Source of the DNA: an uncultured Verrucomicrobiae bacterium
GTDB taxonomy: Bacteria > Verrucomicrobiota > Verrucomicrobiia > Limisphaerales > UBA11358
Assembly: GCA_963769285.1 (NCBI GenBank)
Contig: CAVYLE010000002.1
Location: forward strand, 91,904 to 155,903
DNA: 64,000 nucleotides
Direction: 5' to 3'
Under the pieces are notes generated by a model, which saw nothing but the letters and a program-made list of their open reading frames with translations, was not told the origin of the DNA and did not search any database. Shown in pieces: positions 23,974 to 32,898 of this stretch. How positions within the stretch are numbered: position 1 is the first letter of the stretch; each line of letters begins with the position of its first letter. A program made the position numbers and the translations under genes.

Positions 23974-24738
23974 ATGAAATTACTCGATCTGACGCTTCCC
24001 TGGCCGGCCGAAAACCTGGCCTGCGACGAGGCGCTGCTCGACGCCGCGGAAGCCGGCACCGGCGACGAGGTGCTGCGTTTCTGGGAATCGCGCGGATCTT
24101 TTGTCGTCGTCGGCTATGCGAACAAGGTGGCGGCGGAAGTGAACGTCACGGCGTGTGAAGCGCGCGGGATCCCGGTTCTGCGACGCTGTTCCGGCGGGGG
24201 CACCGTGGTGCAAGGACCCGGCTGCCTCAACTACACGCTGGTTCTGCGCATCACCGCCGACGGCCCGCTCAACAACATCGGCATCGCCAACCAGTTCATC
24301 ATGCGCCATAACCGCGCCGCGATTGAATCGGTAGGGCGCGGCACTCCGTGCGCGCCACACGACGGCGGGCAGAGGACTGCCCGCCCTACCATCGCCATCC
24401 GCGGCCACACTGATCTCGCCATCGGCGATCGCAAATTCTCCGGCAACTCCCAGCGCCGCCGCAAACATTTCCTGCTGTTTCATGGAACGTTTCTGTTGAA
24501 CTTCGACCTCGCGCTCGTCAGCGAACTGCTGCGGATGCCGTCCAAGCAGCCCGATTACCGCGAGAGCCGCCCCCATGACAGATTCCTGACCAACCTGAAC
24601 GTATCCGCAGACAAAGTGAAGGTAGCGTTGCAACAGGCATGGAAGGCGGAAAAACCATTGAAAAATCCGCCGCTGGAAAAGATTACGGCTCTGGCGCGGG
24701 ATAAATACGCCACGCGGGAATGGAACTTTAAATTTTAA
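23974..24738 (+). CDS. Biotin/lipoate A/B protein ligase family protein (LplA/LipB-like)
   Basis: 'VLRFWESRGSFVVVGYA', 'RRCSGGGTVVQGPGCLNY', 'GDRKFSGNSQRR'. Divergent from aceE. Confidence 0.7.
   Translation: MKLLDLTLPWPAENLACDEALLDAAEAGTGDEVLRFWESRGSFVVVGYANKVAAEVNVTACEARGIPVLRRCSGGGTVVQGPGCLNYTLVLRITADGPLNNIGIANQFIMRHNRAAIESVGRGTPCAPHDGGQRTARPTIAIRGHTDLAIGDRKFSGNSQRRRKHFLLFHGTFLLNFDLALVSELLRMPSKQPDYRESRPHDRFLTNLNVSADKVKVALQQAWKAEKPLKNPPLEKITALARDKYATREWNFKF
24330..24390. repeat. REP-like element, family E, in frame inside the lipoate ligase gene
   Basis: 'GGTAGGGCGCGGCACTCCGTGCGCGCC..GGCGGGCAGAGGACTGCCCGCCCTACC'. It is a reverse-orientation relative of 61659..61727 and encodes 'VGRGTPCAPHDGGQRTARPT'. 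Confidence 0.8.
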
Positions 24739-25370
24739 TAAGGAATCCATGAAACCATGAAGGGATTGTCCTCCTGCCCTCCTGGTTTCTTTATATAAAG
24801 TCTTTTTGCCAGTTCCGCCTGGCTCTTCGCAAATACTTCCTTGTGCAGCGAGTTGCCATGCGCGTCCATCGTGACGACGGCGGGAAAATCCCGCATCTCA
24901 AATTCCCAAATCGCCTCCGGGGCGCCGAATTTGTCCATCAGATAAACATTCCGCACCTTTTTTATGCAGTCGGCCAGCACCTGTGCCGCGCCACCGACCG
25001 CGTGCAAATACACACATCCGTATTTTTTGCATGCCGCCAGTGTTTTATCGCCCATGCCGCCCTTGCCGATGACGCCGCGCAACCTGAAGTCGCGAATGAT
25101 TTGCGCCTGATACGGCTCTTCGCGGATGGAAGTCGTCGGGCCGGCGGCGGTGGCCTTCCAAGTGCCGTCGTCCTGCTTCATCACGACCGGGCCGCAGTGA
25201 TACAGGATGCCGTCGCGTAAATTCACGCCCGGCGGAAGCTTGCCGCCTTCGTGCAAATACTTGTGCACCGCGTCGCGTCCGGTGAACACGACGCCGGAAA
25301 TCAGCACCTCGTCGCCGACCTTCAGCGACCGGATTTTTTCTTCGGTGAATGGAAAAGTTAATTTTTTCAT
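24735..25370 (-). CDS. Class I Fe-S fumarate hydratase / tartrate dehydratase, beta (C-terminal domain) subunit
   Basis: 'LKVGDEVLISGVVFTGRDAVHKYL', 'GPTTSIREE', 'GVIGKGGMG'. Confidence 0.8.
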   Translation of the reverse strand: MKKLTFPFTEEKIRSLKVGDEVLISGVVFTGRDAVHKYLHEGGKLPPGVNLRDGILYHCGPVVMKQDDGTWKATAAGPTTSIREEPYQAQIIRDFRLRGVIGKGGMGDKTLAACKKYGCVYLHAVGGAAQVLADCIKKVRNVYLMDKFGAPEAIWEFEMRDFPAVVTMDAHGNSLHKEVFAKSQAELAKRLYIKKPGGQEDNPFMVSWIPY

Positions 25371-25381
25371 GGGTTGTCCGG

Positions 25382-30849: not shown

Positions 30850-31937
30850 GGACGTGCGCCGAGAACATTTTTTTCCCACAACTCGCCCAATCCGTAGTCA
30901 TCCAGCCATGCGGTCATGTCCTGTTGACTGAGATGGCGGAAAACACTCTGATCGTCCTCGCGATCAACGGTCCAAACCGATTTCGGCTCAAATTGATTTA
31001 CTAATGTGACAGACTGCGTGGCGACCATAACCTGCGTCCGCGTCGCGGCCGAAGACAACAAATCCGCCAGCAATGTCACCGCTGCTGGATGCAACCCAAG
31101 TTCAGGCTCATCGAGTAAAACCACCGCTGGCAATTGCGGTTGCAGGAGCAGCGTGGTCAGACAGAGGAAACGCAAAGTTCCGTCTGAAAGCGAAGAAGCA
31201 TTGAAATAAGCATCACTGCCTTTCTCTTTCCACTCCAGCCGTATTTTACTTTCGTTCAATTTCGACGGCGAGAGGCGAAACTCCTCAAAGAATGGTGCAA
31301 TCTGTCGTACAGTATCTTGAATGTTCGCAAAGTGATCCGGCTTTTTCTGCTGCATCCAATAAAGAAATGCCGCTAAATTTTCAGCTTGAGGACGCAGTAC
31401 TCGATTGTCTTCCAGGTCACCCGTGCCTTTGACTGCCGCTGTATCGCTCGTGTCGTGGAAGTGATAAACACGATAGCTTTCTAAATCGCTCGTTGCTTCA
31501 CGGGCACAGATATGATCAACCGTTTTTAACTTCGACTCCTTGGAGAAGGATGAGATGCCTTTCACATATGGCCCAGGATACTTCTTTCGCTCATGATAGA
31601 ACGCCGTCTCTTCCGCGATCAAAAAACTGTCATCTTCCGTGCCTGTCAACTTGACGAAATATGCATTTCCAGTGTCGCCTTCGCCGAACTCTAAGCGCAA
31701 GGACATTTCAGGAGATTTCTTTCTTCCAAAATAAAGCAAGGTGTCTGCACCACCCTTAATTCCAACGTAGCCGGCCAGATTCTGGTTCACAATTTCGCGC
31801 AGGAATCGGAACACTTCGATTAGGTTGGACTTGCCCACACCATTTCCTCCGATAAACACATTAAGCAAACCCAATTCGAGTGTTTGCTCCCGTATGGACT
31901 TGAAGTTCTTGATTGTCAGTTTTTCTAGTTTGCGCAT
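30846..31937 (-). CDS. ABC/SMC-type AAA ATPase (AAA_21/AAA_15-like)
   Basis: Walker A 'GGNGVGKSN', signature-like 'LSDGTLRFLCL', Walker B 'VVLLDEPELGLHP', 'VATQS'. Confidence 0.75.
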   Translation of the reverse strand: MRKLEKLTIKNFKSIREQTLELGLLNVFIGGNGVGKSNLIEVFRFLREIVNQNLAGYVGIKGGADTLLYFGRKKSPEMSLRLEFGEGDTGNAYFVKLTGTEDDSFLIAEETAFYHERKKYPGPYVKGISSFSKESKLKTVDHICAREATSDLESYRVYHFHDTSDTAAVKGTGDLEDNRVLRPQAENLAAFLYWMQQKKPDHFANIQDTVRQIAPFFEEFRLSPSKLNESKIRLEWKEKGSDAYFNASSLSDGTLRFLCLTTLLLQPQLPAVVLLDEPELGLHPAAVTLLADLLSSAATRTQVMVATQSVTLVNQFEPKSVWTVDREDDQSVFRHLSQQDMTAWLDDYGLGELWEKNVLGARP

Positions 31938-32019
31938 TTTGCTTTGGGATAATGAACGGTTTCAGAACTTTTGGCGATAATTCATTCGCATGATAAGCTC
32001 ATCGTTAAGCATTTAAGCG

Positions 32020-32898
32020 TTAATACAGCCACTTCCCGATTTTCCCCTGCGCATCCAGCGTCACGCCCTGGCGCCGGTAGGCCCAGCACATGTAGCTGAT
32101 GCTGACGAAATAAGACGCGGGCAGGCGGTTTGCTGCGCAAATCTTCACGCCCAGCAGCGTCGTCTTGCCGCCGAAACCCATCGGGCCGATGCCAAGTTCG
32201 TTCGCGGTCTTCAAAATATCCTGTTCCAGCTTGTCCAACTCCGGATTCGGATTGCGGTCGGGAATCCGCCGCAGGAATTGCGTCTTGCTCATTTCGTAGC
32301 TGGTCGCGCGGTCGCCGCCGATGCACACGCCCAGGATGCCCGGTCCACAACCCTTGCCTTGTGCCTGCAACACCGCGTCGAGAATCGCCTTGCGGCAGCC
32401 GTCGAGGTCGCGGTTCGCGTTGAGCTTTTCGTTCGGCAGGGAGTATTGCGCGCCGACGTTTTCGCAGCCGCCGCCTTTGAGCACCAGCCGCACGCTTACT
32501 TCCGGCGAGCGATGCTGATGAAAATGAAACGTGGGTGCACCGGGTCCGACGTTGGTGCCGTCATTCACGCCGGTGAGCGAGTCCACCGAATTCTGGCGGA
32601 GAAACCCTTTCTTGGTCGCCAGCTTCACGGCTTCCTTCGCCGTTTCCTCAAACGCGATCTGGTCGAAACCGACCGGGCAATCCACGTAAAACAGGGTGCT
32701 GCCGGTGTCCTGGCAGATGGGCTGCGACTTGCGTTTGGCGAGCTGGATGTTCTGGTCAATGATCTTCAGCGCGCTCTTGGCAATGGTGCCCTTTTTTTCC
32801 TGTTCCAGCGACGTGAGGATGGCCTGGTTGACGTCGTCGGGAATTTCCGCCGAAGTGCGCCGGATCAATTCGAGCAGGGAATTGTGCAATTCGCTCAT
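32020..32898 (-). CDS. Class I Fe-S fumarate hydratase / tartrate dehydratase, alpha (N-terminal domain) subunit
   Basis: Start 'MSELHNSLLELIRR'. 'SQPICQDTGSTLFYVD', 'KGGGCENVGAQY'. The ORF-track extension to 33027 is rejected. Confidence 0.8.
   Translation of the reverse strand: MSELHNSLLELIRRTSAEIPDDVNQAILTSLEQEKKGTIAKSALKIIDQNIQLAKRKSQPICQDTGSTLFYVDCPVGFDQIAFEETAKEAVKLATKKGFLRQNSVDSLTGVNDGTNVGPGAPTFHFHQHRSPEVSVRLVLKGGGCENVGAQYSLPNEKLNANRDLDGCRKAILDAVLQAQGKGCGPGILGVCIGGDRATSYEMSKTQFLRRIPDRNPNPELDKLEQDILKTANELGIGPMGFGGKTTLLGVKICAANRLPASYFVSISYMCWAYRRQGVTLDAQGKIGKWLY

Follow-up and report, generated by a model that had tools for sequence, protein, structure and literature searches.

We analyzed a 64-kb stretch of DNA from an uncultured Verrucomicrobiae bacterium (GCA_963769285.1, contig CAVYLE010000002.1, positions 91,904 to 155,903; hereafter the window), in which the two genes of a fumarate hydratase are separated by an array of gene cassettes. 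The gene encoding the alpha subunit of this fumarase/tartrate dehydratase (32020..32898, minus strand; Pfam Fumerase, E 1e-70) is the upstream boundary of the array. Its product is 75-97% identical to the alpha protein found upstream of the beta gene in most of the loci L001-L080 of a survey of relatives described below, where relatives are labelled by L-numbers. The intact beta gene, whose product starts with MKKL (24735..25372, minus strand; Pfam Fumerase_C, E 1e-54), lies 6.65 kb from alpha on the same strand. Both domains are full length in the window, and the genes are separate and, in 44 relatives with an empty site, adjacent, as expected of a two-subunit class I (Fe-S) fumarate hydratase/tartrate dehydratase. 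A preliminary description of this sequence had assigned the same identities and coordinates to the two genes and put the gap at around 6.6 kb, in agreement with the Pfam matches.

A repeat search of the window returned one family of four direct copies of 99 nt (25274-25372, 26102-26200, 28988-29086, and 30050-30148) that are 80-85% identical in ungapped alignment. The reference copy is the first ~100 nt of the intact beta gene (25274-25372). When the beta start was searched by blastn against the whole 64 kb, only the repeat copies matched (85-90% identity, E 1e-27 to 4e-35), the next match having an E-value of 0.014. Both searches recover the three extra, truncated beta starts (hereafter b') in direct orientation that had been described previously. 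Their peptides also agree with that description, MIKL...(R/Q)ALK in the truncated copies and MKKL...RSLK in the intact gene. The similarity between the copies of the window begins a few bases 5' of the ATG and stops after 87-105 coding bases. Flanking copies of the ~100-nt duplication diverge within their first ~20 nt. The copy closest to alpha, b'1 (30049..30148, minus strand, ATG at 30145), has a 3-nt in-frame deletion and an open reading frame (ORF) of 35 aa with a stop codon 3 nt before the next gene. The second, b'2 (28988..29086, minus strand, ATG at 29086), has a 43-aa ORF ending 9 nt before a 60-aa gene. The third, b'3 (26119..26200, minus strand, ATG at 26200), has a 34-aa ORF that overlaps the start of a DUF4230 gene by 8 nt, and keeps only ~87 coding nt because of a secondary deletion at its junction; locus L120 has the same shortened junction. 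This amends the earlier figure of ~80-95 nt of coding sequence per copy. The ~30-nt leader then counted as part of the repeat was not retained: in 79 distinct upstream contexts no motif is shared upstream of the ATG and only "CC" immediately before it recurs.

The copies were said to divide the gap into four modules. Their contents are as proposed, but module 1 is bordered by a repeat downstream and not upstream, which leaves three of the four modules between repeats. Modules 2 to 4 are flanked by b' copies and by the beta start, and the target gene is intact, which is the direct-repeat arrangement of integrative elements. Module 1 holds an ABC/AAA_21 ATPase gene identified as HEC-01A (30846..31937, minus strand; Pfam AAA_21, E 1e-34; PADLOC, E 1e-140) and a DUF4276 gene identified as HEC-01B (30178..30879, minus strand; Pfam, E 1e-51; PADLOC, E 2e-79). 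The two genes overlap and cover the PADLOC models over nearly their full length, making the pair a candidate HEC-01 defence system. HEC-01A occupies the same first array position in L012, L055, L123/L138, and L036. The low GC content noted earlier for this module is borne out at third codon positions (GC3), with values of 0.50-0.52 in the pair vs ~0.70 in neighbouring genes and other modules, which suggests a recent acquisition from a lower-GC source.

Module 2 begins with a gene of a 159-aa type (29554..30032, minus strand) and continues with its two usual small partners, paralogues of 71 aa (29346-29561) and 97 aa (29096-29389) that span 29096..29561 on the minus strand and belong to a family that we call K1. 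The first gene had been taken for the remnant of a PIN toxin. It is rather a full-length gene with a single frameshift near 29918: in a tblastn comparison with the homologue of L084, residues 1-38 are in one frame and residues 40-159 in another. Its likeness to PIN is visible only by eye, and it had no sequence match in Pfam, NCBIfam, PHROG, or the PDB; profile searches gave no family match for the K1 paralogues either. The two partner genes are intact, and the frameshifted 159-aa gene of the window may encode a toxin that has been inactivated. Module 3 opens with a sigma-70-like promoter (TTGCCA-17-TAAATT, 28950..28978, minus strand), followed by an antitoxin-like 60-aa gene, named here MSAAEI after its first residues (28761..28943, minus strand), which overlaps a gene for a 790-aa membrane/Sel1/TPR protein (26392..28764, minus strand; Pfam TPR families, E 1e-36). 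Polytopic Sel1/TPR membrane proteins of 741-790 aa fill a module in the window and in L072/L140. In the window this gene sits after the MSAAEI gene, the slot of MazF-like or RelE-like toxins in other arrays, an unusual pairing. Module 4 is a DUF4230 membrane protein gene (25382..26101, minus strand; Pfam DUF4230, E 4e-13).

To place this locus among its relatives, we scanned genomes and metagenomes with the beta protein and obtained 160 loci, or 101 non-redundant loci with both alpha and beta. These records come from bogs, peat, and soils, mostly as metagenome-assembled genomes (MAGs) and metagenome contigs. Most are Verrucomicrobiota (Limisphaerales/Pedosphaera-like), and the different labels of a few MAG records are probably erroneous. 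The site is empty in 44 of the 101 loci, with 4-53 nt between the alpha stop and the beta ATG. This is the synteny comparison advocated in the preliminary description, and it finds the two genes adjacent in distant and in many close relatives. All the distant relatives (beta at most 80% identical) with both genes have an empty site, except L064, where the gap is of 161 nt. The other 57 loci are occupied by inserts of 161-6935 nt (median 1.6 kb), with no b' in 23 of them, one in 23, two in 9, and three in 2, which puts the array of the window among the largest. The 66 unique b' copies are without exception direct repeats located in the alpha-beta gap; none was found in ~2 Mb of locus flanks or on the opposite strand, and no surveyed locus has a second, long copy of the alpha 3' end. 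Hence, the same two conserved genes enclose varied cassettes in some genomes, often with truncated beta starts, and nothing in others, as in minimal mobile elements. The proposal of an insertion hotspot therefore stands: relatives do not share the 6.6 kb of the window as a conserved block, linkage of alpha and beta is the normal state, and the alignment of the repeats is highly significant.

Since most loci come from MAGs and metagenome contigs, chimeric repeats might have been produced by assembly or binning. This is next to impossible, because the same architecture is found in many independent assemblies of different projects, on contigs of 0.2-4.6 Mb, and because the copies are diverged, not identical, with junctions common to different samples. 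Three further loci (L013, L031, and L047) have no alpha within 10 kb, and housekeeping genes encoding SMC, YfhO-like, decarboxylase, and amidohydrolase proteins precede beta instead. From these loci, the hotspot may double as a breakpoint for larger rearrangements.

The cargo of the occupied sites consists of defence and toxin-antitoxin (TA) genes that are independent of, and unrelated to, the fumarase. The most frequent genes are the MSAAEI gene (26 loci), often with a MazF-like or RelE-like toxin gene after it, the small partner family K1 (21 loci), the 159-aa gene family (18), the DUF4230 gene (13), HEC-01 (6), and the large TPR protein (4). Further cargo includes TIR, an ORC/CDC6-like STAND protein, a KAP NTPase, HNH, FRG with GmrSD, AbiU2, Fic, Nmad3, restriction-modification, BsoBI, and a Dam-type methylase with a DUF7687 protein; several proteins belong to no family. 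The units measure 0.5-2.5 kb, are tightly packed, and are shared as such between species, and the confidently identified cargo is nearly all co-oriented with the operon. The sole clearly metabolic and antisense cargo that we saw is a 1329-aa alpha-L-rhamnosidase on the opposite strand of the array in L152 (3402-7391, minus strand) and in L154. No relevant RNA family or terminator was found between cassettes, Rfam comparison included.

What moves is a cargo together with the beta start on its right, since each module of the window with the beta start that follows it is colinear with a cargo and an intact beta gene elsewhere, and beta starts track their left-hand cargo. Module 1 and b'1 match the HEC-01 genes and intact beta of L055/L012 up to about +98 (positions with a plus sign are counted from the beta ATG), and b'1 is the former start of an arrangement in which HEC-01 alone lay between alpha and beta. 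Similarly, module 2 and b'2 are colinear with a small gene and intact beta in L002/L053/L042, and module 4 and the beta gene with the same pair in L019/L004/L008. For module 3 and b'3 the counterpart is L072 (also L140), where the TPR homologue, with a 72-aa ORF after it, neighbours intact beta. Beta starts with the same left-hand cargo are more similar at +4..+21 (identity of 0.76 vs 0.64 otherwise), and so are pairs of a truncated and an intact start from different genomes (0.73 vs 0.65). The DUF4230 gene lies directly upstream of intact beta in the 7 of 7 genome loci examined. It is followed by a MKKL start in the window, L004, L008, L019, L101, L102, L120, and L148, by MNKL in L103, and in L133 by a displaced b' that has the MKKL start. 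The first codons of beta thus travel with the cargo on their left, as implied by the earlier claim that each event regenerates an intact start, and the insertion of a new unit leaves the previous beta start behind. Once displaced, the copies show a relaxed codon-position spectrum, second positions accounting for 21% of the differences in b' vs 7% in intact starts. Unusual nucleotide conservation of the beta start was considered and set aside, the synonymous divergence of codons 11-30 being at the low end of the range of the gene, not exceptional. Concerted evolution of b' with the intact start of its own genome gave mixed results: some copies rank top and others do not.

Do these units move between genomes? 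Shared cargo is more similar than the flanks by more than 3 points in 19 of 159 pairs of loci (up to 12 points), which indicates that cargo moves laterally. Examples are L001/L118 (98.3% for the cargo vs 92/83% for the flanks) and L011/L133 (98.7% vs 94/88%). In 97 of the 159 pairs, the cargo is far more divergent than the flanks. Blocks of high identity begin or end within b' or beta, and both beta and alpha are mosaic. The mosaic flanks, the variable crossover points, and the 19 pairs all speak for homologous exchange in the flanks as a probable route. One could also think of a purely vertical history, in which one ancestral array arose by duplication in situ and then underwent differential loss and divergence, with neither capture nor lateral exchange. 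The arrays are indeed identical in the few pairs with at least 99% identical flanks, many b' have their best match in the intact start of the same genome, and deletions occur. Yet such a history accounts neither for the 19 pairs with elevated cargo similarity nor for the 97 with the opposite pattern, and it is at odds with the mosaic genes, the foreign GC3 of HEC-01, the empty sites of the outgroups, and the alpha remnant of foreign origin in L083 (see below). Besides, dozens of unrelated cargo types could not all fit in one ancestor. We regard it as highly unlikely.

The junction of L083 indicates how an array may be founded. There, the first b' passes at GGNCGYRACGC directly into the terminal ~45 nt of an alpha gene, stop codon included, after which the cargo begins (nhmmer E 1e-6; p<0.0005 by shuffling of local alignments). 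The 11-mer GGGCGTGACGC is present both at position -49 of alpha and at +91 of beta. The tail of the alpha remnant matches the alpha gene of L133 at 21 of 21 positions and differs from the alpha gene of L083 itself. By its sequence, this junction is the product expected if a donor DNA made of an alpha 3' end, a cargo, and a beta gene were anchored by its beta homology and joined on the left, at a microhomology, within the resident beta. This corresponds to an unequal crossover between alleles or to homology-facilitated illegitimate recombination (HFIR), in which DNA taken up by natural transformation pairs through homology at one end only, its other end being attached at a short GC-rich microhomology. 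L083 is alike in that beta, at +~101, is joined to a foreign alpha, at -42, within GGNCGYRACGC, with the donor beta on the right. It is unlike in that the illegitimate joint lies within the gene that also provides the anchor, which creates a duplication. To our knowledge, HFIR is an experimental outcome and not the generator of a standing, clade-wide cassette array. The left ends of the DUF4230 and MSAAEI cassettes were also tried as alpha remnants, which would have made a general rule, and were dropped (shuffle p of 0.28 and 0.11-0.69, respectively).

Loss is also visible. L152 (2715-2817) and L154 (5000) have 100% identical flanks and differ by a deletion of 103 nt between CGATGRC repeats that removes most of a b'. 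Loss of b' copies by deletion explains why some arrays have no b' and others a shortened one, as with b'3 of the window. In L059, a more distant relative that was counted as empty, the 53-nt spacer (9948-10000) is made of a b' fragment fused to the terminal ~25 nt of a toxin gene of the RelE type, similar to the one in L142. This spacer is the scar of a lost cassette; hence, some empty sites are secondarily empty.

We therefore favour, with a probability of about 0.6, a recombinase-free array that was founded by rare, illegitimate, homology-anchored joins and is spread by ordinary homologous recombination. The array would occupy, across a clade of Limisphaerales/Pedosphaera-like Verrucomicrobiota, the ~12-nt spacer of the fumarase operon, its unit being a cargo and the first ~100 nt of beta. 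In the rare founding event, DNA of a relative carrying a cargo and beta would be anchored on its right by beta homology, while its left side would be joined to the resident beta, around +95 to +109, in an illegitimate event at a short GC-rich microhomology. This would be HFIR or, equivalently, an unequal crossover, and HFIR may be the general founding route. The resident start would stay as a truncated b' and the donor start would restore the beta gene. Afterwards, b' and beta would serve as portable homology arms through which homologous recombination, presumably dependent on RecA, could insert, exchange, or remove units in one species or across species. Decay would follow from microhomology deletions that remove b' and cargo, and the payload would be a stockpile of defence and TA genes. 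Of the mechanisms suggested in the preliminary description, recombinational capture fits these data. Site-specific insertion fits poorly, since neither the ends nor the exchange points are fixed and no recombinase, among the proteins scanned, or att-like motif was found.

The position of the junctions deserves closer inspection because it bears on a rival explanation. The b' copies end between +60 and +129, depending on the cassette family, with 46 of the 66 ends at +95..+109: ~+101-105 at the DUF4230, L083, and MSAAEI junctions, +108 in the units with the 159-aa gene, +118 in the L009/L017 family, and ~+60-90 in the shortened variants. Exchange points inside beta, as seen between genomes, fall at ~+16 (L097/L133), at +62..82 (L012/L131), and beyond +130 (L011/L133). 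Segment identities had seemed to indicate a fixed crossover at +98; in residue-level alignments, the informative differences are mostly in the first 16 nt and the switch points vary. A fixed crossover like that of integrons, at the G/TT of the core site, was not observed.

The alternative is an integron-like, site-specific system in which a trans-acting recombinase would recognize a core within the near-palindrome at ~+80..+108, cassettes would be circular with the beta start and this core as their attachment site, b' would correspond to attL, and the restored gene to attR. The zone +95..+109, where the b' ends of many unrelated cargo types cluster, forms an imperfect inverted repeat, and no other local hairpin was predicted consistently. 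As in chromosomal integrons (bioRxiv 10.1101/2024.07.02.601686), small cassettes in a common orientation carry many TA and defence genes, and cassettes lacking a recombinase are expected if the enzyme acts in trans. Against this, the b' ends differ between cassette families instead of falling on one nucleotide, and the exchange points range from +16 to beyond +130. Moreover, the near-palindrome encodes the conserved FTGRDAVH motif, and empty sites and outgroups have it too. The L083 junction, in which beta is fused to alpha at a microhomology, is not an att product, and the scans of the 64-kb window and of 10-kb flanks revealed no recombinase. We consider a system of this kind to be quite unlikely.

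Several observations nonetheless weigh against a recombinase-free origin. The b' ends lie within ~15 nt across at least 8 unrelated cargo types, which is tighter than random illegitimate joining, and the breakpoint zone is the GC-rich near-palindrome GGCGTCGTGTTCACCGGRCGCGACGC, which could be the core site of a trans-acting recombinase. First-position cargo starts exactly at the alpha stop and ends at "CC ATG", a clean entry into the 12-nt spacer that the favoured model does not account for; with the tight clustering, it leaves room for such an enzyme. Only L083 convincingly shows a fusion of b' with the alpha 3' end, the DUF4230 junction being suggestive only (nhmmer E 0.012 with a shared patch, p 0.28 without it) and the other junctions lending it no support. 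The few genome pairs with at least 99% identical flanks share the same array except for one deletion and show no recent gain; we looked for closer kin of the window species in which a recent gain or loss might be seen, and none exceeds ~95% beta protein identity in the genome or metagenome scans. Finally, the absence of an integrase, resolvase, or transposase, which speaks for the favoured reading, was observed for ~50 defence, TA, or housekeeping proteins from arrays, locus flanks, and window flanks, not for whole genomes.

The recombinase scans (six with Pfam, and one each with PADLOC, NCBIfam, and PHROG), which included the 64-kb window and the 10-kb flanks, returned none. The earlier assertion that the locus matches neither integrons, nor insertion sequences (IS), nor tRNA-targeting islands remains valid. 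No match to Phage_integrase, as expected of IntI, was found among the scanned array and flank proteins of the window and the loci, whole genomes not having been searched. In DNA folding of both strands of three copies, the repeats behaved no better than shuffled sequences (z of -1.5 to +0.7), and no attC site was recognized by folding, upstream motifs, and Rfam comparison, a judgement made without a dedicated attC model. As for IS and transposons, the scanned proteins include no transposase, the module ends have no terminal inverted repeats, and the duplication is of ~100 nt.

Repeated partial copies of a target that is itself regenerated are known from tandem islands such as tycheposons, the ssrA islands of Dehalococcoides, and ICE/IME-CIME elements, that is, integrative and conjugative, integrative mobilizable, and cis-mobilizable elements (bioRxiv 10.1101/2020.12.28.424599; PMC3146451; PMC5704250). 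The modules could accordingly be integrase-less remnants of larger, integrase-bearing elements that entered the 5' end of beta with a replacement start. Tandem accretion with repeated target pieces is well known at att sites in tRNA, tmRNA, and protein genes in these same studies, and the displacement of the old start upstream while a new one is supplied is the geometry of a 5'-end integration. The resemblance extends to the target-gene fragments between cargo blocks and to the restored target gene. Unlike this locus, those islands rely on tyrosine or serine recombinases with a fixed att core, and some members retain the integrase; neither was seen here. Among the proteins scanned from the 57 occupied arrays, with their 66 unique b', there is no integrase or element backbone gene, the att-like ends are not fixed, and the units are small, closely packed, and exchanged as such. 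We hold an origin from decayed integrative elements to be very improbable.

Closer parallels are found in systems without a dedicated recombinase. In the orphan toxin/immunity modules located downstream of the cdiA (contact-dependent inhibition, CDI), rhs, and mafB genes, serial displacement leaves truncated gene fragments (PMC4927057, PMC6336857). As in these, a new module arrives here with a piece of the host gene as homology while older modules stay in tandem, and a truncated piece stands between each left-hand module and the next one. The geometry is mirrored, with 5' fragments upstream of the intact gene, and the cargo does not provide alternative ends of a host protein but independent defence and TA genes unrelated to the host gene, which encodes a subunit of a metabolic enzyme. 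Minimal mobile elements (MMEs) of Neisseria are different cassettes found between the same conserved genes and exchanged, with no recombinase, by homologous recombination in the flanks (PMC3787668, PMC1797815). The fumarase locus is like them in having varied cassettes between one conserved gene pair and no associated recombinase found. It is unlike them in that the duplicated beta starts let cassettes stack, up to four modules; MMEs have been described as replacement sites without repeated flank fragments. Sedentary chromosomal integrons, for their part, hold small co-oriented cassettes, many of them promoterless, that stockpile TA and anti-phage genes and recur in different combinations (bioRxiv 10.1101/2024.07.02.601686; PMC12614218). 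The likeness lies in the stacked, co-oriented TA/defence cassettes, the repeated separator, and the combinations reshuffled between genomes. The differences are that no IntI, attC-like fold, or fixed crossover was found, that the separator is the truncated start of the downstream host gene, that the array sits inside a housekeeping two-gene operon, and that the evidence points to homologous and illegitimate recombination. On the favoured reading, the array is thus integron-like in function, not in mechanism, the latter being closest to the CDI/Rhs orphan arrays, Neisseria MMEs, and HFIR.

The b' copies also bear on the expression of the cargo. Some 46 of around 55 unique b' keep a start codon and an ORF of 31-52 aa that ends between -17 and +15 nt from the start of the first cargo gene. 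In units with the 159-aa gene, this ORF nearly always has 36 codons and a stop 3 nt before the ATG, with the last four codons varying. This suggests translational coupling through the initiation region of beta. The short ORF of attI1 in integrons aids the translation of cassettes that have no initiation region, and the b' micro-ORFs resemble it. The MSAAEI cassettes open with a sigma-70-like promoter (TTGCCA-17-TA(A/G)ATT), kept at the start of many of them, whose -10 box provides the stop codon of b'; this motif has 21 occurrences inside arrays and none in the flanks. Judging from these signals, the cargo probably owes its expression to read-through combined with translational coupling, or to a promoter of the cassette itself.

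Defence islands and variable hotspots are usually attributed either to mobile elements with recombinases of their own or to simple allelic replacement between conserved flanks. This locus shows a third route: because part of a housekeeping gene has been duplicated over a short length, cassettes at a replacement site do not just succeed one another but build up, to as many as four modules. Such arrays are common to dozens of uncultured species of peat and soil, with a payload akin to that of chromosomal integrons (TA, TIR/STAND, HEC-01, restriction, Abi), and no paper in the literature collection that we searched describes this locus or links fumarate hydratase genes to a defence or cassette hotspot. 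They offer a testable model for an integrase-free origin of cassette arrays, a natural catalogue of compact candidate defence genes of Verrucomicrobiota, many without family assignment, and an example of how selfish or defensive cargo can exploit the signals by which a split metabolic operon is transcribed and translated. A bolder reading, which we find tentative and on balance unlikely, is that the first ~100 nt of beta were co-opted as a portable recombination-and-translation module, an analogue of attC, with which the clade captures, stacks, and expresses defence and TA cassettes in an essential-type operon, either by host recombination or by a trans-acting recombinase at +80..+108. This would be a second, independently evolved integron-like system. 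If a dedicated recombinase were found, it would define a new class of site-specific gene-capture system.

Two other repeats were observed around the array. One resembles repetitive extragenic palindromic (REP) sequences or miniature inverted-repeat transposable elements, AACCACGGATGRACACGGAT(GRACACGGAT), and occurs in intergenic regions as inverted pairs ~120 nt apart. Its copies lie in the window at 13804-13821 (plus strand), 13932-13949 (minus strand), and 45974-45991 (plus strand), and in relatives at 16565/16690 (L013), 11274/11397 (L107), and 8914/9033 (L146). Degenerate single copies are found directly after the alpha stop in L002, L008, L018, L025, and L053, at the left edge of first-position cassettes with unrelated cargo. 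This repeat might supply the ectopic homology needed for cargo to be captured in the spacer for the first time. The other is a 26-nt inverted repeat upstream of alpha in the window (33088-33183), 85% complementary and with a 44-nt loop, which had only a chance-level match in Rfam and corresponds to the 5' end of a divergently transcribed YfhO-like ORF (33120-35714).

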